From positions 16,046 through 80,045 of the forward strand of contig JAGXRQ010000095.1 in assembly GCA_018335675.1 (NCBI GenBank): 64,000 nt of DNA, read 5' to 3'. Below are positions 1,692 through 64,000 of the stretch, one piece after another (positions within the stretch are counted from its first letter, which is position 1; each line of letters starts with the position of its first letter). The notes beneath the pieces are model-generated. The model made no database searches. It had not been told where the DNA came from and saw only the letters and a program-made list of their open reading frames with translations. Source of the stretch: Bacteroidota bacterium. GTDB lineage: Bacteria > Bacteroidota > Bacteroidia > Bacteroidales > UBA7960. The position numbers were made by a program, and so were the translations under genes.

Positions 1692-3056
1692 ATGGATAAT
1701 CTTGAAATAAATGCTATTTCACCTATCGACGGCAGATATTATAATAACACAAAAAAACTTAGAGAATTCTTTTCAGAAGCCGCATTGATTAAGTATAGGG
1801 TTTATGTTGAAATAGAATACTTTATTGCATTGTATCAATTACCAATTGAGGAGTTAAACAAACTTTCCGAAGAAAAAATTAATCAAATCAAACTCATTTA
1901 CCAAGATTTTAAACTTAAAGATGCTGCAAGGGTTAAAGAGATTGAAAAAACAACAAACCACGATATTAAAGCAGTTGAATATTTCATCAAAGAGAAATTT
2001 GAAGAAATAGGATTATCAGATTTTAAAGAGTTTATCCACTTTGGTCTTACATCTCAGGATATTAATAATACTGCCTTCCCATTAATGCTAAAAGAAGCAT
2101 TGTATGTTGAATTAATACCTGCTATTGAGAAAGTAATGGATAAGCTTGAAAGTATGTCTGAAGAATATAAAAATCAGGCTTTGCTTGCCTTTACTCACGG
2201 ACAACCGGCGTCTCCAACTGCACTTGGCAAAGAGCTTTATGTATTTTTAAATCGATTAGACACTCAAATAAATCATTTAAAAAGCTTGCCTTTCCCCGCT
2301 AAATTTGGTGGAGCCACAGGCAATCTGAATGCTCATTTGGTAGCATATCCTGAAATAAATTGGATAAAGTTTGCAAATAATTTTGTTGAAAATAATCTTG
2401 GGCTTAAACGTTCTAAAGTAACTACCCAAATTGAACATTATGACAACATCGCTTCAATCTTTGATTGTCTAAAACGAATTTGCACAATAATTATTGACCT
2501 TGACAGAGATATGTGGACTTACATTTCCAAAGAGTATTTTAAGCAAAAGATAAAGGAAAATGAAGTTGGGTCATCTGCTATGCCACACAAAGTAAATCCT
2601 ATTGATTTTGAAAACTCCGAAGGTAATTTGGGAATTGCAATTGCAATTTTCGAGCATCTTTCTGCCAAGTTGCCAATATCTAGATTACAAAGAGATCTTA
2701 CAGACTCTACAGTACTAAGAAATATTGGAGTTCCAATGGCACATATGTTGATTTCTTTACAAGCTACAATTAAGGGATTAGAAAAAGTTATTCTTAATAA
2801 AGCCGCTATTGATAAAGATCTTGATGCAAATCCAATGGTTATTGCCGAAGCTATTCAAACAATTCTTAGGAAACTTAACTATCCAAAACCTTATGAAACG
2901 CTTAAAGAATTGACAAGGACTAATGAAGCTATTACATTACAGCATCTTTATACATTCATTGATTCGCTTGATATTCCTGAGAATTACAAAGCTCAACTAA
3001 AAAGTTTAACACCTTCTAATTATACAGGGTATAACCTTGATGCTTTAATTAAATAA
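1692..3056 (+). CDS. purB: adenylosuccinate lyase
   Basis: MDNLEINAISPIDGRYY N-terminus, the fumarate-lyase signature GSSAMPHKVNP and a TSQDINNTA motif. Start moved to the ATG at 1692, giving 454 aa. Confidence 0.93.
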   Translation: MDNLEINAISPIDGRYYNNTKKLREFFSEAALIKYRVYVEIEYFIALYQLPIEELNKLSEEKINQIKLIYQDFKLKDAARVKEIEKTTNHDIKAVEYFIKEKFEEIGLSDFKEFIHFGLTSQDINNTAFPLMLKEALYVELIPAIEKVMDKLESMSEEYKNQALLAFTHGQPASPTALGKELYVFLNRLDTQINHLKSLPFPAKFGGATGNLNAHLVAYPEINWIKFANNFVENNLGLKRSKVTTQIEHYDNIASIFDCLKRICTIIIDLDRDMWTYISKEYFKQKIKENEVGSSAMPHKVNPIDFENSEGNLGIAIAIFEHLSAKLPISRLQRDLTDSTVLRNIGVPMAHMLISLQATIKGLEKVILNKAAIDKDLDANPMVIAEAIQTILRKLNYPKPYETLKELTRTNEAITLQHLYTFIDSLDIPENYKAQLKSLTPSNYTGYNLDALIK

Positions 3057-3078
3057 AATTCTGAACTTCTATTATTAA

Positions 3079-4899
3079 ATGAAAAATATCTGGAAAATTG
3101 CCAAATACATCTATCCTTATAAAAAGAAGGTTTGGCTGCACGTATTGTATACTTTTGCCGGAGTTTCCTTTTCTCTTTTCTCAATTGGAATGCTAATCCC
3201 ATTTTTAGGAATACTCTTTGGAACTCAATCATACGTAAACGAACCTGTTGAGCTCTCATTAAGTATTGATTCTTTAAAACATTATTTCAACTATAATATC
3301 AGCCTGATGATTAATCAGTTTGGTAAGATAAACACTTTACTCATACTCAGTGCAGTTATGATGATTGGAAGTTTTATAAAAAATGGGTTTCTATACCTAG
3401 CAATGTACTATTTAGCTCCAATAAGAAACGGCGTTGTTCAGGATATTCGTAATACTCTTTATCAGAAAACCCTGGAATTGCCAATGTCATATTACTCAAA
3501 TGAAAGAAAAGGAGACCTGATATCACGTATGACAAATGATGTACATCAGATTGAATGGAGCATCATTAGTTCACTTGAAATGCTATTCCGTGAGCCAATA
3601 ACAATAATTGTTTACATTGCAAGTTTATTGGTGATTAGTCCGCAACTTACACTTTTTGTTGTTATCCTCTTGCCATTCAGTGGATTTATTATTGGAAGAA
3701 TTGGAAAATCCTTGAGAAAAACATCATCTGTTGGTCAGAAAAAGCTTGGAACAATTATTTCCATGATGGAAGAAACACTTACCGGACTAAGAATAATTAA
3801 GGCTTTCAATGCAGAAGCAAAAACAACCAAGAAGTTCAGCACACTAAACCAAGATTATACAAATATTATGAATAAAATCTACCGAAGAAACTACCTCGCT
3901 AGGCCTTTGGTGGAGTTTTTGGGAACATTGGTTGTAGTATTAATTATGATTTATGGCACCTATATGGTTCTACGTACCGGAAGCTCATTATCATCTCAAG
4001 CATTTATCGGATATTTATTAATATTTTCTCAAATATTAAATCCGGCAAAATCATTCTCAACAGCTTATTATAACATTCAAAGAGGACTTGCTTCGGCCGA
4101 CAGAACAGAGGAAATTTTATCAGCAGAAAACAAGATAGTTGAAATGCCTGATGCAAATCAAATTAATGAGTTTAATGATTCTATTGAATTTAAAAACGTT
4201 TCTTTCAGATATGAAAAACAATTTGTTCTTCAAGATATTAATCTTAAAATAAACAAGGGCAAAACTATTGCTTTAGTTGGTCCCTCTGGAGCCGGAAAAT
4301 CCACTATGGTTGACCTTATCCCGAGATTATACGAAGTATCAGAAGGGGAAATATTGATTGACGGAACCGATATTCGCAAACTGAAAATTAAAGATTTACG
4401 TGCATTAATGGGCAATGTAAATCAGGATGCAATTTTATTTAATGATTCTTTTTACAACAATATTGCTTTTGGGGATAGAGAAGTTTCTAATGAAGATGTA
4501 ATTAATGCTGCAAAAATAGCCAATGCACATGAATTTATAATTCGTACTGAGCAAGGCTATGATACAAATATTGGAGATATGGGAAATAAGTTAAGCGGAG
4601 GACAAAAACAAAGACTTGTAATTGCCAGAGCCGTGCTAAACAACCCTCCTGTTCTGATACTTGATGAAGCCACTTCTGCTTTAGATACCGAGAGTGAAAA
4701 ACAAGTTCAACAGGCACTATCTAATGTAATGAAAAACAGGACATCAATAGTTATTGCCCATAGGCTTTCAACAGTAGTGAATGCAGATTTAATATGCGTT
4801 GTAAACGATGGTAAGATAGTTGAGCAGGGAAAGCACGATGAATTGATTAAATTGCAAGGATTATATCATAGGCTTCACAACCTACAAATGTTTTCATAA
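3079..4899 (+). CDS. ABC transporter, fused permease/ATPase (MsbA / lipid A exporter-like)
   Basis: 606 aa. The N-terminal half has six hydrophobic segments. Walker A GPSGAGKST, ABC signature LSGGQKQR and Walker B LILDEATSALD are present. Confidence 0.9.
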   Translation: MKNIWKIAKYIYPYKKKVWLHVLYTFAGVSFSLFSIGMLIPFLGILFGTQSYVNEPVELSLSIDSLKHYFNYNISLMINQFGKINTLLILSAVMMIGSFIKNGFLYLAMYYLAPIRNGVVQDIRNTLYQKTLELPMSYYSNERKGDLISRMTNDVHQIEWSIISSLEMLFREPITIIVYIASLLVISPQLTLFVVILLPFSGFIIGRIGKSLRKTSSVGQKKLGTIISMMEETLTGLRIIKAFNAEAKTTKKFSTLNQDYTNIMNKIYRRNYLARPLVEFLGTLVVVLIMIYGTYMVLRTGSSLSSQAFIGYLLIFSQILNPAKSFSTAYYNIQRGLASADRTEEILSAENKIVEMPDANQINEFNDSIEFKNVSFRYEKQFVLQDINLKINKGKTIALVGPSGAGKSTMVDLIPRLYEVSEGEILIDGTDIRKLKIKDLRALMGNVNQDAILFNDSFYNNIAFGDREVSNEDVINAAKIANAHEFIIRTEQGYDTNIGDMGNKLSGGQKQRLVIARAVLNNPPVLILDEATSALDTESEKQVQQALSNVMKNRTSIVIAHRLSTVVNADLICVVNDGKIVEQGKHDELIKLQGLYHRLHNLQMFS

Positions 4900-54724: not shown

Positions 54725-55498
54725 CTAAAAAGAACAAATTATTTGGAAAAAATCAGAAGATTTAAGAGAAGCACCACCAATTAGTCCTCCATCCACATCA
54801 GTTTGTTTGAATAATTCCTTGGCATTCTGCGCATTACAACTTCCACCGTATAGAATTGAAATACTATTTGCTATTTCCATTCCATATTTTTCATTAATTA
54901 GATTGCGAATAAACTCATGCATTTCCTGAGCCTGTTGCGGAGACGCTGTTTCTCCTGTGCCTATTGCCCACACGGGTTCGTATGCAATTACAACCTTTTT
55001 AAAATCAGCCTCATCCATCCAGAATAAACTCTTAACAATCTGTTGTTTAACAACGTTAAAATGTTGTTCAGATTTTCTTTCCGGCAAAAGTTCACCACAG
55101 CAAAAAACAGGTATCAAGCTATTATCAATGGCCTGCGACACTTTTGCGGCTAATGCTTGGTCATCTTCTTTAAAATACTGCCTTCTTTCAGAATGACCAA
55201 CAAGAACGTGAGTAGCCCCAATAGACTTAAGCATAGTTGCTGAAACTTCACCTGTATATGCGCCTTTATCAGTTGAATAGCAATTTTGAGCTCCAACGTA
55301 CACTCCCTTTACCTTTTTCGCAATTTTTACAATTTCTGTAAGATGAGTGAATGGCGGAAAAAATATCACCTCAGGGTTGCCACTAATTGCACTTAATGGT
55401 TTATTGATAATCAGCTCGCAAATTGATGTTGCCAGCGCCTTGCCTTCTTCCAAAGTGGTGTTCATTTTCCAGTTTCCTGCTACAATATTCTTTTTCAT
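54725..55498 (-). CDS. tpiA: triose-phosphate isomerase
   Basis: 257 aa with AGNWKMN, VGHSERR, AYEPVWAIGTG and GGASL motifs. Confidence 0.95.
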   Translation of the reverse strand: MKKNIVAGNWKMNTTLEEGKALATSICELIINKPLSAISGNPEVIFFPPFTHLTEIVKIAKKVKGVYVGAQNCYSTDKGAYTGEVSATMLKSIGATHVLVGHSERRQYFKEDDQALAAKVSQAIDNSLIPVFCCGELLPERKSEQHFNVVKQQIVKSLFWMDEADFKKVVIAYEPVWAIGTGETASPQQAQEMHEFIRNLINEKYGMEIANSISILYGGSCNAQNAKELFKQTDVDGGLIGGASLKSSDFFQIICSF

Positions 55499-55560
55499 GA
55501 TGTGTATATTTTATCGTTTTTTATAATGCGATTTCGTTTTGTAAAATTATCGTTTTAATT

Positions 55561-55613
55561 TTAAGATTTGTAAGATTCTTAAGATTTGTAAGATGTAAGA
55601 TTTGTAAGATGTA
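55561..55613. repeat. 9/7-mer tandem array TAAGATTTG / TAAGATG
   Basis: taagatttg taagattct taagatttg taagatg taagatttg taagatg taa. Confidence 0.9.
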
Positions 55614-55616
55614 ACC

Positions 55617-55700
55617 CGAAGCTGGAAGTCCCTATCGGGAGCTTCCAGTTCTAGCGTGAGGAACTTCCAGCTTCCGCGACAGCGGAACTGGAAGCTTCCG
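55617..55700. repeat. two adjacent long hairpins built from CTGGAAG/CTTCCAG units
   Basis: gaagctggaagtccc-tatc-gggagcttccagttc and ggaacttccagcttccgc-gaca-gcggaactggaagcttcc. Confidence 0.7.
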
Positions 55701-55707
55701 GGGGTAT

Positions 55708-55736
55708 TATTTAATCCCTAAAACTCGCCTTTTTTT
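55708..55736 (+). repeat. left copy of the 29-bp direct repeat bracketing the CRISPR-Cas locus
   Basis: atttaatccCtaaaactcgcctttttttt. It is 28/29 identical to 62476-62504 in the same orientation. Confidence 0.85.
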
Positions 55737-55767
55737 TCTTCAATCTTACAAATCTTGCAAATCAAAG

Positions 55768-56792
55768 AGTAGTGTATTATTCCATTTTTAAATCAAACCA
55801 CAACACTACTCCTGCTTTTGTAGTGTTTTTACTAGTTGTTAATTATTCCATTTTTAAATCAAACCACAACATGTTTATTTAGAAAGAGCCGCAAATGGTG
55901 GTTGTTAATTATTCCATTTTTAAATCAAACCACAACACGTCACAGGCTATTGCATCATCCACCGCAGTTGTTAATTATTCCATTTTTAAATCAAACCACA
56001 ACCTACCCATAATTACAAATGCCACCAATAGGTTGTTAATTATTCCATTTTTAAATCAAACCACAACCAGCTTAAACAACCTGCCGTTGATAAACATGTT
56101 GTTAATTATTCCATTTTTAAATCAAACCACAACTTCCGCGTATTCTACGTAATTGCTGTCAATGTTGTTAATTATTCCATTTTTAAATCAAACCACAACA
56201 AAAGACAGTGATAGCTTTTCATTTAAAAAGTTGTTAATTATTCCATTTTTAAATCAAACCACAACCTGACCCACGAATAAAGGAACTTGAAGAAAGTTGT
56301 TAATTATTCCATTTTTAAATCAAACCACAACTGCTTCAATGATAAGGCACTCCGAATCATTGTTGTTAATTATTCCATTTTTAAATCAAACCACAACCAT
56401 CTGCGCTGCGCTGTTTTGATTAATCCAGTTGTTAATTATTCCATTTTTAAATCAAACCACAACATTGCTAGCCGCCGGACAATATACAGAATGGTTGTTA
56501 ATTATTCCATTTTTAAATCAAACCACAACGTAGCGACGCGCAATTATTGGAAGAAATTGGTTGTTAATTATTCCATTTTTAAATCAAACCACAACAAAAA
56601 ACATGCACAACCCCTTGATTGAGTAGTTGTTAATTATTCCATTTTTAAATCAAACCACAACCCCCCGCCTTACTTGTTTCCTTATATACGCGTTGTTAAT
56701 TATTCCATTTTTAAATCAAACCACAACATTGATTTTACAATCAAAATAAGCTATTATGTTGTTAATTATTCCATTTTTAAATCAAACCACAA
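55768..56792 (-). CRISPR. CRISPR array, 16 repeats of 36 bp and 15 spacers (14 x 30 bp, 1 x 29 bp)
   Basis: Plus-strand repeat is GTTGTTAATTATTCCATTTTTAAATCAAACCACAAC. Repeat starts: 55768 (degenerate, 3 mismatches), 55834, 55900, 55966, 56031, 56097, 56163, 56229, 56295, 56361, 56427, 56493, 56559, 56625, 56691, 56757. Minus-strand transcription is inferred from tracrRNA complementarity and from the degenerate repeat lying at the cas-distal end. Confidence 0.97.
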
Positions 56793-56921
56793 CATAGAGC
56801 TTTAAAACATATTAAAAATAGATGTTTTGAAGTGTTTTTTATCACAAGAAAAACACCAACAAACTTCTATGAAGTAGTTTGATTATGGTTATTTTATTTT
56901 TCCAATTATGTCAAAGAACTT
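56793..56921 (-). promoter_or_regulatory. putative CRISPR leader (cas2 stop to first repeat)
   Basis: 129-bp AT-rich non-coding stretch adjacent to the non-degenerate end of the array. No clean TAnnTTTG was found, so read-through from cas2 is possible. Confidence 0.5.
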
Positions 56922-57260
56922 TTAAAACAATTCCAGTTGAGCAGGTGCAGAACCCATTTCCTTTTCTTTTCTTCCAATAAAGTTTACAATATTACCATAT
57001 TGTTTATCTGTTATTGAAAGAATACTTACCTGCCCTTTTTCCGGCACAAATCGCCTAACTCTTTTTACATGCACTTCTGCCGATTCACGACTGGCACAAT
57101 GCCTTATATAAACCGAATATTGCATCATTGTAAAACCATCTTTTATCAGGTTTTTTCTAAAGCCTGTTGCAGCTTTGATTTGCTTTTTAGTGGTAACCGG
57201 TAAATCAAAAAACACAAATAACCACATTATATGATACGCATTTAGCCTTAACTGCTCCAT
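56922..57260 (-). CDS. cas2: CRISPR-associated endoribonuclease Cas2
   Basis: 112 aa. MWLFVFFDLPVTTKKQ...MQYSVYIRH is the typical Cas2 ferredoxin-like N-terminus. It lies 6 nt downstream of cas1. Confidence 0.9.
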   Translation of the reverse strand: MEQLRLNAYHIMWLFVFFDLPVTTKKQIKAATGFRKNLIKDGFTMMQYSVYIRHCASRESAEVHVKRVRRFVPEKGQVSILSITDKQYGNIVNFIGRKEKEMGSAPAQLELF

Positions 57261-57266
57261 TTTACA

Positions 57267-58157
57267 TTATTGCAATAAAGGATATTTTATTTTTTTTGTT
57301 TCTCCGAAAAAGCACTTTACCAATGATGCTGTTGTATTTGATAACGCAATCATCAAAGGTCTTCTGTTTTTGTCTATAAATACATCATCTGCCAGAACTT
57401 TAAGCAACTCCGCTTTGGTTTCTTTATTAAGAAACTGGTCCTCCGGATTATTTTTGTATATATTATAAACCCTTGCATCAACAAATGGGCGGTACGGCTC
57501 CATTATGTCATCTGCAAGGCAATATGAATTATATTTATTACTGTGATGGATCCCCAATGCGGGCATCAAACCTGAACCAACCAAAGCTCTGGCAACGGCT
57601 GCTCTCAATATTATATAACCATAATTCAATAAATCATTGGGGTATTCTCCAAATCTCTCACGGTTAAAATCCTTACCAAACAACTTTCCCCAATACTCTC
57701 TTGCAGCAGCACCTTCACGATTTTCGGGATCACCTGATTTAACATCTTTTGCAAAACTTAATACAGTATTATGTTTAATCCCTAGCTTTTTTAATAAATA
57801 TGCCTGATTTGTGATTTTTGCCTCTACTGTTTGTTTCCAAAGGTTCTTTTTTAAAGGAATACCGGCTTCAATCTGTTGTCTAATCGTTTCATTCTGAGTA
57901 TTGTTTCCGTCAAGATTAAGCAACATTGACTGTGGGTGGTGCTTTGAATTGCAAAACACAATAGCAGCATTATTACTCATTAAAGCCTCTATTAGTGACA
58001 TACTTAAACTTAGTCTCATATTTTCCAGAATCACAAAACCAATATCCTCTATCGGCACACTAACGATATCACCGTCTGCTTCAGGTGTTGCAATAAGTTG
58101 ATTATTTTGTAAATTCAACTTATATGGATTTGAGAAAAACAATGTGCGTTTTAGCAT
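57267..58157 (-). CDS. cas1: CRISPR-associated integrase Cas1 (type II)
   Basis: 296 aa. The catalytic region is GIHHSNKYNSYCLADDIMEPYRPFVD. It lies 11 nt downstream of cas9. Confidence 0.95.
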   Translation of the reverse strand: MLKRTLFFSNPYKLNLQNNQLIATPEADGDIVSVPIEDIGFVILENMRLSLSMSLIEALMSNNAAIVFCNSKHHPQSMLLNLDGNNTQNETIRQQIEAGIPLKKNLWKQTVEAKITNQAYLLKKLGIKHNTVLSFAKDVKSGDPENREGAAAREYWGKLFGKDFNRERFGEYPNDLLNYGYIILRAAVARALVGSGLMPALGIHHSNKYNSYCLADDIMEPYRPFVDARVYNIYKNNPEDQFLNKETKAELLKVLADDVFIDKNRRPLMIALSNTTASLVKCFFGETKKIKYPLLQ

Positions 58158-58168
58158 AAATTCATTAT

Positions 58169-61100
58169 TTATAATTGAATTATTTTACCCAATGCTGTTA
58201 TTTTAAAATCAAAGCCCTCAACTATTGTATTAAACTGGTTGTGATTTAATTTTCGCTGAGGTTTATGTTCTTCATCAATGCAAAAGGCACCATCTTGAAC
58301 CTTTAAATCAGATGCTTGTGTGGCTTCTTGGTGAAACCTTAAAACTATTGTTGCATATTCGCCAATTTTTCCAGATGGTCTTATTATACGTTGATTACTT
58401 AATCCAATAATCTTATAAAGCCTCTTCTTAATTTCAGAATGTTCTAAGTCCCAGACTTCTTCCGGTGATTTTTCCCAAAGAATAACGAGTGTTCCTATTT
58501 TAATAATAGATTTTAAAGGTAATTCCAGCTTTCCATTATTTTTTGCCTTCGGTATTAAGCCATAATAACCTTCGATGTTTTGAGCTTTCAATTCTTTCTG
58601 AACTGAGTATTTAAAAAACTCTGCCGCTTCAAGGTTTGATTTCAATTCAAAATCTCTTTTTATGTTACCATTTTCATCTTTGCCTTCATATATGGCCATC
58701 ATATAGTTACTGTCATTTGCAACATGAAAATACTCCTTATACGGCTTTGGATTTATTAATGCTTTGTCTCTTTGCTTTTTAAGATGTATTGGGTTTGTAA
58801 CCGACGGGGTATAGATTCTAACTTTTTTTATTGGAATAGGCTCTCCGTTTTTATTTGGAAGTGAATATATCTTTTGTATTTCTTTCTCAAGGTTCTCGAT
58901 TTCACTTTTTAAAATAGATTCTTCACTTTCTTCGGCTTTGCTCAACTTCTTTTTCAAATTATCAATTTCGCTTCTAAGAATCTTTTCTTTTTTACGCCCA
59001 TCTTCAACAATTTGTCTAACTCTCTCATCAACAATATTTTTTATGTTTGAATCTTCAAAATTGTTATCCAGAGCCTTTCTAACTACATATTTAATCTGTT
59101 TTTCAATTTCACCATTTTTATTAACTATCTCTTTTTCAATAGCTCCGTAGAAAGTATCTTTATGCAGGCTTCCTCTTACGGAATCTCCCTTTTGGTATAT
59201 GGCATTACCATTTTTATCTTTTACAACTCTACCTCTTTTTCTGAGTTTTTTCTTACTTTGCTTTGGTAAAACATCAGGAGTGTAGTGTGAAATTAAAACC
59301 TCATCTTCAAGTCTCTTCAAGTCTTCCGTGAAAGTATTCCAAGGCTTTGGAGTATTAAACTTGTATTTCGTGTCATTTATAAAGCTATCATCTCTGTCAT
59401 GATAATATTTTGCAAGGTTTTCATAGTTTTCTTTAGTCATGCATGCAATTACAACGGCGTCAATACAATGATGCACGTGATTAACTCTTTCTTTTTTCTC
59501 ATAATCATTCTGCAAACCCCACATTTTCCTAAAATCTGCAACAGTATTACCCTTAACAGTATATACTTTGTCAAATACAGTTTTCATGTATAAACGCCCA
59601 TATTTTGCAATTATGCCCATATCAACCAATTGACTGTTTTTGAATCCTTGGGGCACATCTATCATAAAAAAGCGACTCAATTTATTTCTGTAATAATCCC
59701 TCTCAAAGCATAGTCTGTGTCTTTTTTGTATTGCTCTATCTTTGCTATCTTTTTCAGCAGCTCCCTTGGATGCCCTTATAGCAGCCTGCACTTGTTTATC
59801 TAGTTCTTCTATCTTTGCAAGCCAAAGTCTTTCAACCCTTTCTTTTATTTCATCATAGTTAGAAATTTCAGATGGTAAATTATTCTTCTTGATAGAGCGG
59901 TTAAACCTGTTGTTGCACAACGTTTTATTTTCCTGAGAGTTATCAAAAGAAAGGCTTCTGGGGATGGTATGTTCTATATCATATTGAGGATTTGAACCAA
60001 GAAATTCACTTAAAGCAATTTCCTCTCCTGTATAAATACATTTATGCCCTTGTTCCTCCCAAAGCTGATATTTTAAAACATCGTCCTCACTTGGTTGAGT
60101 AGTCATTCCCTGAGCCTTATAATGCTCAAGAATACTTTCATAATATTTTTTTCTTATAGTTTCTCTATCTCTTTGCCAAGTTTGCAAAGCTTTCCTTTCA
60201 TTAGCATTAAGTAAGCCACGGGACATTTCAATGTTCACCTTAGTGTTCTCATCAATTATTTCATTATTTATCAACTCGTTGATTACTTTTCTTAGTTGAT
60301 GTAATGCCCTCATTGCCATCGGATTTCTAATTGAGGAGATTAGCGGACTTCCTAGATACTTCTTCCCATTGTCATCTTTTTTAGCCGGCTTATACACTTC
60401 AATAGCAGAAGGGTGATAAATATTATCCAGTTTTTTAATATCTGCCTTGTAATTATTTAATAAGAAATCTTTTACTCTTTCATCAATGGTTTGAATCTTT
60501 AAAAAGTCGCCACGACCTAAATTCTTTATCATTTGGGTTTTAAGCTGACTTAATGCTCTGCTCTCTATTCTTTTCTTAATTTCATCAGGAAAAGAATTAT
60601 ACGTTTTCTCCCCAAAATAGGATAATAATCCTTTTACTAAATCATTATGATAATAACTAATTGATTCATCACTCCAGCACTCTCCATTCTCTCTGCAATT
60701 CTTGATTATTCCATTAATAATTTCAATAATTGCTTTTTCCTCATTTTGTGTTTCAATGATATTTATTATCTCACCATTAATTTTGTTTCTTTTTATCTCA
60801 TCAGTCCATATTTCTTGTGGCAAGGCATTAGACATATTAGCTAAAACAACAGCGTGGGAATAAATAAGCCCACTTCTTAGATAAGGTAGTATATTCTTTA
60901 GCGCCTTTAAACTTAGTGAAGCAAATTCATTTTTTAATTTAATTCTGGAAAATTCAGCAATTTGTTCATCATCTAGTTTTAGTTTATTTTTTGCAAATTC
61001 AACCAATTTTTCATCATTATTAAAAGTCATCAACACATGCCAAACATCGTCAATATTTATCATTGATGTTTTTCCATCTTTTTTTCTAACATGTTCAATA

Positions 61101-62218
61101 TGCCAATTTAAAAAATCATCACCAAAAATGCTTTTAAATCTTGCTGATACAGGGTTGCCACTAACTGTAGTGTTCATTTGGTAATTAAATATATAGTCTT
61201 CAGCTTTTTTGTCCCTGTCCTTAAAATACTTGTATCTGTTTTTGGGGGCTAATGCTTTCGCAATATCTTCAAATGGAAAATGATCTTTTTTAAGGTAGAA
61301 TTTTTCAATTACTTTTTTTCGTTCTTCCTCATTTAGTGGTCTAAGTTTTTCATCTTCAGGGGTTTGTATTCGAATATTATTCACAAAGCATAACATTCTG
61401 TATTCTTCAAATAAAGGATGAGAAACAGAGCACCTTTGTTTATTCTTTTCAAAAACACACATTCCAATTAATCCTTTTTGTGACTTCAACGGTCTTTGGA
61501 AAAAAATAGCTTTATAAATCTTGTTCTTAAAATCATCTGAAAGCTCTTGAACTTCACAAATTTTATCAAACTCCTCTAAATAATGTTCTTCTCTATGAGT
61601 ATATTGATCGCGGATTTTCTCCCCTTTTAAATACTTTTCATAAAAAAATTGCCCAAGGGTTTTCTCTCCTTTTGCAATATTTATTTCCTCAATATTCTTT
61701 TTTACAGCACCATCAGATTCTTTAGTTCCTTCAAGTCTATTGCTTAAAAAACCTCTTCTTTGTGCTATATGATATAATGCCCTACCTATTATGAATCTGT
61801 TATTCTCAACATTTTGGTCAAGCTTCTCCGTTGCACAAATACTCCTGAAATAATAAGGATTACGATTTGACATTTCATCTGTTTTCCACCAAGCATGAAA
61901 CAATTCATTAGTTGGGTAAACTTTTTTGTAGCGCCAATTAAAAAGATCTTCTTCACTGATTTTTGGGCAAAATCCATATTCTGTTAATACTTTAAGAGTT
62001 TCTATTTTCCTCAGCTTTCTTCTGAATTTCAGCCTTCTGGCACTTCTATATTTTGTTCTTTCAGCTGCCTTGGAGTTTTCAATACCTTTCTCAATTTTTA
62101 CTCCCTCTTGAAATATTCTTACTCCTTTTTCAATAAGTTTAAAACTTTCTTTATCTTTTTCAACCACAGCCCATCCGATGCTGTTAGTTCCGAGGTCAAG
62201 TCCCAAAATTTTCGTCAT
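58169..62218 (-). CDS. cas9: Cas9 (type II-C context), 1349 aa
   Basis: RuvC-I ILGLDLGTNSIGWAV (D8), an Arg-rich bridge helix (aa ~52-72), RuvC-II NIEMSR (E664), HNH YDIEHTIPRS...NNRFNRSIKKN (H750, codon 59971-59969 checked) and RuvC-III NHVHHCIDA (H917 and D920, codons checked). No csn2 or cas4 in the locus. Confidence 0.95.
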   Translation of the reverse strand: MTKILGLDLGTNSIGWAVVEKDKESFKLIEKGVRIFQEGVKIEKGIENSKAAERTKYRSARRLKFRRKLRKIETLKVLTEYGFCPKISEEDLFNWRYKKVYPTNELFHAWWKTDEMSNRNPYYFRSICATEKLDQNVENNRFIIGRALYHIAQRRGFLSNRLEGTKESDGAVKKNIEEINIAKGEKTLGQFFYEKYLKGEKIRDQYTHREEHYLEEFDKICEVQELSDDFKNKIYKAIFFQRPLKSQKGLIGMCVFEKNKQRCSVSHPLFEEYRMLCFVNNIRIQTPEDEKLRPLNEEERKKVIEKFYLKKDHFPFEDIAKALAPKNRYKYFKDRDKKAEDYIFNYQMNTTVSGNPVSARFKSIFGDDFLNWHIEHVRKKDGKTSMINIDDVWHVLMTFNNDEKLVEFAKNKLKLDDEQIAEFSRIKLKNEFASLSLKALKNILPYLRSGLIYSHAVVLANMSNALPQEIWTDEIKRNKINGEIINIIETQNEEKAIIEIINGIIKNCRENGECWSDESISYYHNDLVKGLLSYFGEKTYNSFPDEIKKRIESRALSQLKTQMIKNLGRGDFLKIQTIDERVKDFLLNNYKADIKKLDNIYHPSAIEVYKPAKKDDNGKKYLGSPLISSIRNPMAMRALHQLRKVINELINNEIIDENTKVNIEMSRGLLNANERKALQTWQRDRETIRKKYYESILEHYKAQGMTTQPSEDDVLKYQLWEEQGHKCIYTGEEIALSEFLGSNPQYDIEHTIPRSLSFDNSQENKTLCNNRFNRSIKKNNLPSEISNYDEIKERVERLWLAKIEELDKQVQAAIRASKGAAEKDSKDRAIQKRHRLCFERDYYRNKLSRFFMIDVPQGFKNSQLVDMGIIAKYGRLYMKTVFDKVYTVKGNTVADFRKMWGLQNDYEKKERVNHVHHCIDAVVIACMTKENYENLAKYYHDRDDSFINDTKYKFNTPKPWNTFTEDLKRLEDEVLISHYTPDVLPKQSKKKLRKRGRVVKDKNGNAIYQKGDSVRGSLHKDTFYGAIEKEIVNKNGEIEKQIKYVVRKALDNNFEDSNIKNIVDERVRQIVEDGRKKEKILRSEIDNLKKKLSKAEESEESILKSEIENLEKEIQKIYSLPNKNGEPIPIKKVRIYTPSVTNPIHLKKQRDKALINPKPYKEYFHVANDSNYMMAIYEGKDENGNIKRDFELKSNLEAAEFFKYSVQKELKAQNIEGYYGLIPKAKNNGKLELPLKSIIKIGTLVILWEKSPEEVWDLEHSEIKKRLYKIIGLSNQRIIRPSGKIGEYATIVLRFHQEATQASDLKVQDGAFCIDEEHKPQRKLNHNQFNTIVEGFDFKITALGKIIQL

Positions 62219-62264
62219 AGCTAAATGTTTTTATAGTAAATTATGTTTATTTGAATTAGTTCTA

Positions 62265-62272
62265 TATCTTTG
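62265..62272 (+). promoter_or_regulatory. candidate -7 promoter element for tracrRNA
   Basis: TATCTTTG (TAnnTTTG) lies ~12 nt upstream of the anti-repeat, on the strand opposite cas9 and 47 nt from the cas9 ATG. Confidence 0.5.
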
Positions 62273-62276
62273 CAAC

Positions 62277-62368
62277 AAGATATAAAATTCCATTTTAAAT
62301 CTTATCACAATAAGGCTATATGCCGAAGGATTTTTATCCTATACTCCCGCTTCGGTGGGAGTTTTTTA
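62277..62368 (+). ncRNA. tracrRNA: tracrRNA (anti-repeat, nexus, hairpin, terminator hairpin)
   Basis: The anti-repeat at 62284-62311 (AAAAUUCCAUUUUAAAUCUUAUCACAAU) pairs with the minus-strand repeat transcript GUUGUGGUUUGAUUUAAAAAUGGAAU. It is followed by AAGGCUAUAUGCC (compare the SpCas9 nexus AAGGCUAGUCC), AGGAU-UUUU-AUCCU, and ACUCCCGC-UUCG-GUGGGAGU with U6. The 5' end is estimated from the promoter motif only. Confidence 0.8.
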
Positions 62369-62475
62369 TTTACGTGTAAATATAATTAATTTTTACAAAA
62401 TAAAATTCGTGTTTTCGTCTAAGTAATTTTTGTTATTTGTCTTCTAATAATTATGAAAAAATACTTTGCATAAAA

Positions 62476-62504
62476 ATTTAATCCTTAAAACTCGCCTTTT
62501 TTTT
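62476..62504 (+). repeat. right copy of the 29-bp direct repeat bracketing the CRISPR-Cas locus
   Basis: atttaatccTtaaaactcgcctttttttt. It is 28/29 identical to 55708-55736. Confidence 0.85.
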
Positions 62505-62625
62505 ATACCTTTTACCATTATCCCAAAACTCAAAACCCAAAACCTAAAACCCAAAACCCCAACCTAAAACCTAATCCCCAATCTTACCAATCTTACAAAT
62601 CTTCAATCTTACCAATCAAAAAAAA
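62505..62625. repeat. heptamer tandem array (CCCAAAA / CCTAAAA units changing stepwise into CAATCTT units)
   Basis: cccaaaa ctcaaaa cccaaaa cctaaaa cccaaaa ccccaa cctaaaa cctaatc cccaatc ttaccaatc ttacaaatc ttcaatc ttaccaatc. Confidence 0.9.
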
Positions 62626-62670
62626 ATGTAGTTTTGGAATCGGAATTATTATTCATTATACAATATTTAT

Positions 62671-64000
62671 ATGCAAAAAGACCAACAGTTATCTGCAGAT
62701 GTGGTTGTTATTGGAGGTGGTATAAGTGGGCTTACTGCGGCGGCGTTGCTTAATAATGTTGGCTTGAAAACCATTGTATTAGAACAAAGTGCTCAATCGG
62801 GTGGCTACCTCGCTAAGTATGTGAAGAATGGTTTTTCTTTCGATACATCTATACACTGGCTTAATCATTGCAACTCTGAAGGTGTTGTTAGTAAGGTATT
62901 TAATATTATTGGCAACGACTTTCCTGTTGCATCTACTCAGCATAGAATTAAGAGGTTTCTGGGCAAAAATTTCGATTATATTCTTACCAGCAATCCCGAC
63001 GATTTGAAAAATGATCTCATTAGAGATTTTCCTGAAGACAAGGATGGCATTGAGAAATTTTTTCATGCTGCAAAAAAAATGACTCCTTTATTTAAACGTT
63101 TTCATGAGTATTACAGAACTAGTGATACAATGAATCAGTTTGAGAAAATCAAGTACAATCTTACGAGACTTAAATTTGCATTGCCTTTTATAAAGTTTAT
63201 AAAATACTCGGGTAAGAAAGGAAAGATCAAGGGGCTAAACAGATACTTCAAATCTCCGGTTTTTCATGAGATTTTCTCCAACGAGCCGGATCTGCTTTCA
63301 TGCCTTATCCCTATTGCATGGGCGTATAATAAAGATTTCCAAAATCCTCCGGAAGATGGCAGTCAATCATATCCCAAATGGCTTGAGAAAAAGACTCATG
63401 AGCTTGGCGGTCAAATAATTAACAATGCAAAAGCTAAAAAAATTACTCACAAAAATGGCAGATGCAATTCAGTAATATTTGAACAAAAAAAGCAGAAACA
63501 TGAAATTCTTTGCTCGAATGTTATTGCAGCCTGCGATATTATTTCTCTTTATGAAGATATAATGCCTGAGGAATACAGTCCGAAAAAAATGCTGAAAAAG
63601 CTTAAATCTGCCGAACTATACAGCTCTGCAATAGTTGTTAATATATCTCTTGATTGTCCGGCCGAAAAATTCGGACTTAATGAGGAGCTTATAATGTTCA
63701 ACAAATACGAACTTAAGCAGTCAAACCTTGATAATCCTGAAACACCAATCAGCCATCTGTCTGTTTTTTCTCAGTCGGCCAGAAATAAAGGATTGGCTCC
63801 TGAAGGTAAAGGTTCTCTTACTATTATTATGCCTACATCTTTTGAAAGTCACAACAGATGGGAAACAACCACACATGAAAATGGAAATATCGTAAGAGGA
63901 GATAATTATAAAAAGCTTAAACAAAAATATGCCGAAGTAATTATCGACAGGCTTGAGGAATTTTTGAAAAATGACATAAGAAAGCACATAATTGAATATA
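62671..64000 (+). CDS. FAD/NAD(P)-binding oxidoreductase, phytoene desaturase (CrtI/CrtD)-like family, 3'-truncated by window end
   Basis: Absent from the ORF track because no stop lies within the window. ATG at 62671, and I read 443 codons without a stop. The N-terminus is MQKDQQLSADVVVIGGGISGLTAAALL...VLEQ (Rossmann GxGxxG). Confidence 0.8.
   Translation, partial: MQKDQQLSADVVVIGGGISGLTAAALLNNVGLKTIVLEQSAQSGGYLAKYVKNGFSFDTSIHWLNHCNSEGVVSKVFNIIGNDFPVASTQHRIKRFLGKNFDYILTSNPDDLKNDLIRDFPEDKDGIEKFFHAAKKMTPLFKRFHEYYRTSDTMNQFEKIKYNLTRLKFALPFIKFIKYSGKKGKIKGLNRYFKSPVFHEIFSNEPDLLSCLIPIAWAYNKDFQNPPEDGSQSYPKWLEKKTHELGGQIINNAKAKKITHKNGRCNSVIFEQKKQKHEILCSNVIAACDIISLYEDIMPEEYSPKKMLKKLKSAELYSSAIVVNISLDCPAEKFGLNEELIMFNKYELKQSNLDNPETPISHLSVFSQSARNKGLAPEGKGSLTIIMPTSFESHNRWETTTHENGNIVRGDNYKKLKQKYAEVIIDRLEEFLKNDIRKHIIEY

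Follow-up and report, generated by a model that had tools for sequence, protein, structure and literature searches.

The locus studied here raises the question of how a complete CRISPR-Cas9 system came to lie between two conserved genes, and what the pair of direct repeats at its edges has to do with its arrival. It lies in a stretch of 64,000 nt (the window) from a Bacteroidota bacterium of the GTDB lineage UBA7960. The window is positions 16046-80045 of the 103-kb contig C95 (JAGXRQ010000095.1) in the organism's own 3.36-Mb assembly of 150 contigs (GCA_018335675.1, here G000). A first-pass annotation had noticed that the array, the cas genes, and the trans-activating CRISPR RNA (tracrRNA) are bracketed by direct repeats identical at 28/29 positions. 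It proposed that the cassette might have been gained by recombination or with a target-site duplication, or that it could be lost as a unit between the repeats. We find that the type II-C cassette was inserted into the interval that separates tpiA from a crtI-like gene, and that the repeat pair is real, non-random, and specific to this locus. With moderate confidence, we read the repeats as the ends of an intergenic duplication of approximately 58 bp that would mark the junctions of the inserted unit, i.e., a target segment duplicated at insertion.

Direct Repeats at the Edges of the Locus

The repeat is a 29-mer, ATTTAATCC[C/T]TAAAACTCGCCTTTTTTTT, with two copies on the plus strand that differ by one mismatch (Table 1). 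The first-pass annotation had the copies and their shared orientation right, but its start for the left copy, 55708, is one base too low (the true start is 55709). As a control for chance, the window was shuffled 100 times with dinucleotide composition preserved, and matches were allowed up to three mismatches; the pair was matched in 0/100 shuffles. Across the whole assembly these two copies are the only ones, even when five mismatches are allowed, so the 29-mer is not a common genome-wide motif. It was also absent from 76 other genomes of the family (the sister species G001 included), from 23 related Cas9 loci, and from the metagenome-contig and viral-contig collections that were scanned, in which near-identical records may be missing. 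The idea that it might belong to a family of terminators failed, since it has no other genomic copy, neither copy folds (z = −0.2 and −0.7), and a Rfam scan of the region gave no credible match at either one. We therefore rejected a terminator or structured-RNA reading. The sole Rfam match is to Plastid-rpoB, in the array/leader (56751-56796), and is sub-threshold at 26 bits (gathering score 45).

The pair is not an assembly artefact, because both junctions recur in independent assemblies. The left junction is found in ENA contig L066 and the right junction in ENA contig L067, JGI contig L068, and Logan contig L069, all with identical spacing to the flanking genes.

The two copies sit just outside the functional ends of the system, as first described. 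The left copy ends 31 nt from the degenerate terminal repeat of the array, and the right copy begins 108 nt past the tracrRNA terminator. Between them are the array, its leader, cas2, cas1, cas9, and the tracrRNA, and no open reading frame (ORF) other than the cas genes, which upholds the earlier statement that the interval is CRISPR-Cas alone. The composition is that of type II-C: the only cas genes are cas9, cas1, and cas2, with neither csn2 nor cas4, the array lies next to them, and the tracrRNA has as its anti-repeat a repeat-like segment at 62293-62325 (family D3).

The duplication probably extends beyond the 29-mer. On the left, units of the CAATCTTAC type adjoin the 29-mer directly, and the tract that they form ends 2 nt short of the terminal CRISPR repeat. 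The same tract family follows the right copy, as had been claimed, but only after 17 nt and a tract of CCCAAAA units; relative to the left copy, the right one carries a 73-nt tract expansion. In a gapped alignment of the two copies, similarity restarts beyond this expansion (CAATCTTACAAATCTT...AATCAAA). Thus, the duplicated unit is best described as approximately 58 bp, made up of the 29-mer and a AATCTTAC-type tract.

A functional cis-element at both borders of the locus, such as a regulator binding site or an insulator, would account for the symmetric position of the 29-mers outside both functional ends and for the 28/29 bases kept. We consider it very unlikely. The 29-mer is not conserved in relatives or at related Cas9 loci, it has neither structure nor a match in Rfam, and the neighboring tract, which a binding site would not need, is duplicated as well.

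The Interval in Relatives

Three congeneric species (G002, G003, and G004) have tpiA and the crtI-like gene as divergent neighbors, approximately 190-260 bp apart, with no cas genes, tracts, or 29-mer between them. This confirms the earlier view that the cassette was inserted between the two genes. The TpiA proteins of these species are 74-78% identical to that of the window. The same two short anchors lie in their empty sites as beside the cassette (Table 1). The left anchor is the probable promoter region of tpiA. The right anchor includes TAGTTTTG, which fits the Bacteroidota −7 box TAnnTTTG, and from this motif we infer a promoter element.

The closest relative, sister species G001, has 91-92% amino-acid identity in both flanking genes, and its site is filled with something else. 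On the tpiA side (contig C111), the left anchor and its TAAGATTTGTAAGATTC tract are followed by other heptamers, small repeated units, and an array, built on another repeat (30 nt), that extends up to the end of the contig. Homology to the window on this side ends at the anchor and the tract (55540-55578). On the other side of an assembly gap (contig C53), the sequence ahead of the crtI-like gene holds CACATTG heptamers, the genes of an AbiLi/AbiLii pair, and a type I-B cas set (two Cas6, Cas5b, Cas3, Cas8b, and Cas7b). The two contigs are oriented as would be expected of a single unbroken locus whose array adjoins tpiA, which is also the arrangement of the window. No bracketing repeat of at least 11 nt was found at the boundaries of the G001 cargo, and the sequence context of the 29-mers had no significant similarity to those boundaries.

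The small repeated units of G001 have the heptamer tracts on one side and the type I-B array on the other (approximately 2720-3330 of locus L038, on C111). There are three to four of them, related to one another, each with a TAnnTTTG-like box and then a GC-rich segment that can form a hairpin. They may be small RNA genes or another family of repetitive extragenic palindromic (REP) elements.

The interval is thus empty in G002-G004, holds a type II-C system in G000, and holds AbiL and type I-B systems in G001, and these three states make it a defense hotspot. The hotspot is lineage-specific, and the anchors delimit the variable region on both sides. A search of metagenome contigs for TpiA relatives that might carry further alleles of the hotspot gave only matches of ≤60% identity.

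Defense-system hotspots between conserved core genes occur in E. coli, Pseudomonas, and Vibrio, and the "minimal mobile elements" of Neisseria are of a similar kind. The locus shares with them the conserved flanks, the empty or alternatively filled states, and cargo without a mobility gene. It differs in that the cargo is bracketed by a unique direct duplication of approximately 29-58 bp together with heptamer tracts. Homologous recombination in the flanks would not create such a duplication, and this sets the locus apart from plain hotspot exchange. All in all, the locus is a clear but fairly ordinary case of known kinds, a defense hotspot and a repeat-flanked islet, and not a new type of system.

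The closest relatives of the Cas9 are 62-64% identical and are found in Draconibacterium and Saccharicrinis. Among 40 relatives searched, G003 is the only member of the host genus that encodes a Cas9, which is 36% identical and is on another contig. Two Bacteroidales/Saccharicrinis metagenome-assembled genomes with related Cas9 proteins have long heptamer tracts near their CRISPR loci (L048:13699-13852 and L055:2428-2613). In two other loci (L043 and L047), the palindrome CTTTTCCAAAGTTTAAAACTTTGGAAAAG occurs between and around the cas genes.

Other Bracketed Cassettes in the Genome

Few non-coding direct repeats of low copy number have their copies 1.5-40 kb apart in this genome, and a scan located them in about a dozen places. 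Three such repeats bracket accessory cassettes, namely the CRISPR-Cas system, a diversity-generating retroelement (DGR), and an AbiE-like pair (the last identified by eye).

The DGR is the closest parallel. On contig C18 (72976-80248), a 200-bp direct repeat with 100% identity and a spacing of 7,073 bp surrounds a reverse transcriptase, which has a template-like segment upstream of it, as well as two Avd/23S-IVS-type four-helix (bAvd) proteins and a target protein with a Fib_succ_major domain. Each copy of the repeat is followed by gctcaaaccccatt and CACATTG-type heptamer tracts. The genes that flank the DGR, a glycosyltransferase and a resistance-nodulation-division (RND) pump, are adjacent in G001 (gap approximately 580 bp) and in G003 (approximately 380 bp). 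At its empty site, G001 has the distal portion of the repeat in a single copy, with a REP module, gctaaaaccccatt, and the tract, and then the conserved flank. As the empty site has a single copy and the occupied site has two, the duplication is linked to occupancy. The first-pass annotation had suggested looking for just such a single-copy empty site, and it turned up here, at the DGR, and not at the CRISPR locus. By analogy, the DGR supports the view that the repeats at the CRISPR-Cas locus may be a target segment duplicated at insertion. We also looked for DGR-less members of the same species through exact matches to the flanking glycosyltransferase, and none was on record.

The third cassette (C19:56991-59637) consists of two ORFs of 263 aa, resembling an AbiEii toxin and an AbiEi antitoxin by eye, between direct repeats of approximately 135 nt. 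These repeats are built from a multi-copy module family (cacggat...tcactgatt...gcggtttttgcgaaatc).

A terminal repeat of a different sort was seen on contig C16 (24,800 bp), whose first and last 316 bp are identical; it probably represents a circular element of approximately 24.5 kb (a plasmid or phage).

Heptamer Tracts and REP-Like Modules

The first-pass annotation had counted the same heptamer tracts on both sides as evidence. This is weaker than it implied, since tracts with a period of 7-9 nt are everywhere. Tandem Repeats Finder (TRF) reported approximately 790 tandem-repeat loci in the genome, approximately 300 of them with a period of 7-9, and many lie within the window. The AATCTTAC tract family is rarer, at approximately 14 loci genome-wide. 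Its presence in the same orientation after both 29-mers makes co-duplication likelier than coincidence, and the tract family common to both repeat copies is the only informative part of the heptamer evidence.

Long simple sequence repeats have been described as intergenic TAACTGA-type heptamers in Beggiatoaceae, Cyanobacteria, and some Bacteroidetes (PMC4679880). The tracts of this genome are likewise plentiful and intergenic, with units of 7-9 nt that vary stepwise. They differ in their units, which are AATCTTAC, CCCAAAA, and CACATTG, and in their position at the edges of inserted cassettes and not directly upstream of start codons.

A second component of the intergenic DNA is the REP-like double hairpin to the left of the 29-mer. 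Copies of it occur at C59:46237, C83:2992, C37:6213, C87:4012, and C99:3630, and also on C40, and the homology among them stops just short of the 29-mer. The element is built from CTGGAAG/CTTCCAG blocks and often lies beside AATCTTAC-type tracts. Contig C133 (9938-10385) has inverted AATCTTAC-type tracts around a 370-bp segment, a miniature of the tract-bracketed layout; the segment encodes a putative small four-helix-bundle (23S-IVS-type) protein, identified by eye.

Because the intergenic DNA of the genome is such a mosaic of REP-like modules and slippage-prone tracts, which may spread and convert locally, secondary duplication is a serious rival to duplication at insertion. The 29-mer and its tract could have been copied from one edge of a resident cassette to the other, unrelated to its arrival. 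The large number of tandem-repeat loci, the several dispersed families of hairpin modules, the bracketing of the AbiE-like locus by a repeat made of multi-copy modules, and the tract expansion by which the right copy differs are all in keeping with such copying. On the other hand, no further copy of the 29-mer itself exists in the genome and it does not fold, and the DGR site, with one copy when empty in the sister species and two when occupied, links duplication to occupancy. On balance, we regard secondary duplication as unlikely, though well worth weighing.

Mobility Genes and Known Element Classes

No tyrosine recombinase (PF00589) is encoded on contig C95; serine recombinases were not searched. 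There are four PF00589 matches elsewhere in the genome (on C73, C147, C80, and C85). ARAGORN found no tRNA or transfer-messenger RNA (tmRNA) gene in the window, no inverted repeats join the ends of the cassette, and no ORF of the 6.7-kb interval is a transposase. The earlier statement that the window has no integrase or transposase thus stands for PF00589 and for the interval, while the other ORFs of the window were not scanned for transposases and the genome does hold a high-copy insertion sequence (IS), discussed below.

The locus resembles integrase-borne islands and cis-mobilizable elements (CIMEs) in that direct repeats with the length of attachment (att) sites surround a discrete accessory unit without a recombinase. 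It differs from both. It has no linked PF00589 gene and no insertion into a tRNA or tmRNA gene, as integrase-borne islands would, and no cognate element with the same att site, as a CIME would, was found as a third 29-mer in the genome, the 76 family genomes, or the viral and metagenome contigs. Excision was not seen either. A CIME-like origin, in which the 29-mers are the attL and attR of a recombinase acting in trans and the unit was mobilized by another element, nevertheless has points in its favor: the att-like length, the discrete cargo, the hotspot with alternative cargo, and the four tyrosine-recombinase matches on other contigs. We judge it improbable, given that neither a tyrosine recombinase on the contig nor a tRNA target in the window is present, that no third copy (an attP or the att of a cognate integrative and conjugative element) turned up in those collections or at related Cas9 loci, that the G001 cargo lacks a bracketing repeat, and that the DGR has a quite different repeat of 200 bp.

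DDE and composite transposons are expected to leave a duplication of 2-15 bp, whereas here it is 29-58 bp, and the locus has neither terminal inverted repeats nor a transposase in the interval. The length of the duplication and the lack of inverted repeats make a classical, transposase-type target-site duplication unlikely. Of the first-pass proposals for gain, a simple duplication of this type is thus improbable, and duplication at insertion, for which the DGR is an analogue, remains plausible. Casposons, which are marked by a casposase with PolB and by terminal inverted repeats, and CRISPR-associated transposons, which are marked by Tn7-like tnsB/tnsC/tniQ genes, do not fit either, as the interval has no genes besides cas9, cas1, and cas2 and its ends lack terminal inverted repeats.

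The insert does carry cas1 and cas2, and one can imagine that Cas1-Cas2 or a casposase-like activity integrated the whole unit with a target duplication of about repeat length. A duplication of 29 bp is near the size of the CRISPR repeat (36 nt), only 2 nt separate the end of the insert from the terminal repeat, and an 8-mer inside the repeat is matched by the tract end AAATCAAA. We find this scarcely credible. The 29-mer is unlike the leader or the repeat, terminal inverted repeats are lacking, the duplication appears to be approximately 58 bp and not 29, and the DGR cassette has the same architecture without Cas1.

Table 1. Features of the CRISPR-Cas9 locus and its flanks (positions in the window).
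Feature	Position	Strand	Description
tpiA (triosephosphate isomerase)	54725-55498	-	Pfam TIM, E = 2.6e-91; conserved left flank
Left anchor tgtaaaattatcgtttta	55540-55557	.	Followed by TAAGATTTGTAAGATTC tract (to 55578) common to sister species G001
Left TAAGATTTG-type 9-mer tract	55558-55614	.	TRF; inverted counterpart of the tracts behind both 29-mers (inverted repeats I1-I6)
REP-like double hairpin, 90 nt	55616-55705	.	DNA fold −27.5 kcal/mol, z = −5.5; dispersed family, outside the duplication
Left duplication copy	55709-55766	+	29-mer (55709-55737), then CAATCTTAC-type tract ending AATCAAA (55738-55766)
CRISPR array	55769-56793	-	16 repeats of 36 nt, 15 spacers; degenerate terminal repeat at 55769
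cas2	56922-57260	-	Pfam CRISPR_Cas2, E = 1.9e-18
cas1	57267-58157	-	Pfam Cas_Cas1, E = 2.8e-26
cas9	58169-62218	-	1349 aa, intact in G000; Pfam HNH_4, RuvC_III, Cas9_a
tracrRNA	62281-62367	+	Anti-repeat, nexus-like hairpin, terminator ctcccgcttcggtgggagtttttt; divergent from cas genes
AT-rich segment, 108 nt	62368-62475	.	Inner right end of inserted unit; no ORF, no Rfam match
Right duplication copy	62476-62620	+	29-mer (62476-62504), 17 unique nt, expanded CCCAAAA tract (62522-62577), CAATCTTAC tract ending AATCAAA (62578-62620)
Right anchor aaatgtagttttgg	62624-62637	+	Present in G001-G004; homology to relatives restarts here
crtI-like flavin adenine dinucleotide-dependent oxidoreductase	62671-64000	+	Continues past window, 533 aa in full; Pfam NAD_binding_8, Amino_oxidase; conserved right flank

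Origin of the Duplication

Duplication of a target segment at insertion is the reading that we favor. The inserted unit would be 6.7 kb long, with the array's terminal repeat at one end and, at the other, a point 108 bp past the tracrRNA, and would have entered the space between two divergent promoters, that of tpiA and that of the crtI-like gene. We infer that it came by recombination and that the duplication arose with it, for which two routes can be proposed. In one, a single crossover over short homology would take place between the segment in the chromosome and its homologue on incoming DNA that is circular or looped. In the other, homology-facilitated illegitimate recombination would leave the anchor segment on both sides. 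Neither route would require a dedicated recombinase. Later slippage may then have expanded the heptamer tract of the right copy. The outcome would be the same as in homology-facilitated illegitimate recombination or a Campbell-type crossover, where a short anchor segment ends up on both sides without a dedicated enzyme.

Several observations weigh against duplication at insertion. The comparison with related genomes suggested in the first-pass annotation did yield empty sites, but none with a single 29-mer: those of G002-G004 are diverged and the site of G001 is filled. As the sister species lacks the 29-mer, its pre-existence in the target cannot be shown. Neither a donor nor a deletion allele nor any excision product was seen. 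In composition the cas block is unremarkable, with a GC content of 32.6% against 34.6% for the genome (13th percentile) and a tetranucleotide distance at the 71st percentile, and thus bears no compositional sign of recent transfer. At four related Cas9 loci there is no cassette-bracketing repeat, just their own REP palindromes and heptamer tracts. The similarity of the tracts could also partly reflect their independent growth, tracts being so common in this genome.

Present State of the Cassette

Loss of the locus by recombination between the repeats, which the first-pass annotation had thought equally conceivable, is possible in principle, but neither a deletion allele nor a circle was seen in the assemblies, and four assemblies of the species yielded no excised or empty allele. 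Every recorded contig with a gene for the identical TpiA or crtI-like protein has the cassette, with the exception of L065 (Logan SRR6212587_7344). At positions 8966-9052 of L065, the REP-like element links C95, on its tpiA side, with C59, on its AhpC/TPR/RecA side. We rejected it as a cassette-less allele. The join lies within this element, whose 87 nt include an identical core of 32 nt (k = 31). The cas9/crtI-like junction is also present in the same run, and the nth contig of that run stops at a heptamer tract. L065 is probably an assembler chimera; a real REP-mediated rearrangement is the alternative.

What did befall the cassette is an IS. In three other assemblies (ENA, JGI, and Logan; L066-L069), cas9 is split at TTATTTAA (60453-60460), which forms the 8-bp target duplication of an IS with the ends GGCTAAGTTCTAA... 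and ...TTAGAACTTAGCT (also given as GGCTAAGTTCTAATATTAACAGC... and ...GCTGATATATTTAGAACTTAGCT). The same IS ends occur at 34 places in G000, 150-300 nt from contig ends (e.g., C95:158-180, C17:123343-123365, and C50:101855-101877). This corresponds to at least 17 copies of a high-copy, active IS that fragments the assembly. Thus, the inactivation of cas9 seen in nature is by IS insertion and not by excision between the repeats, and the cassette looks fixed and immobile in the species now.

Implications

The locus is a clean natural example of the gain of a whole CRISPR-Cas9 system at a defined hotspot, for which the state before, the state after, and an alternative filling are all available. 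The bracketing duplication, in that it recurs at the DGR, points to a route of insertion without a linked integrase. One may go further and suppose that tract-bearing intergenic regions serve as landing pads, where cassettes (CRISPR-Cas9, the DGR, and possibly AbiE) would be installed independently of a recombinase, with duplication of tens to hundreds of bp of the target, and could later be excised or exchanged via the repeats. We offer this general scheme as a doubtful one. If confirmed, the insertion route would help to explain how defense cassettes move in Bacteroidota without obvious mobile-element genes.

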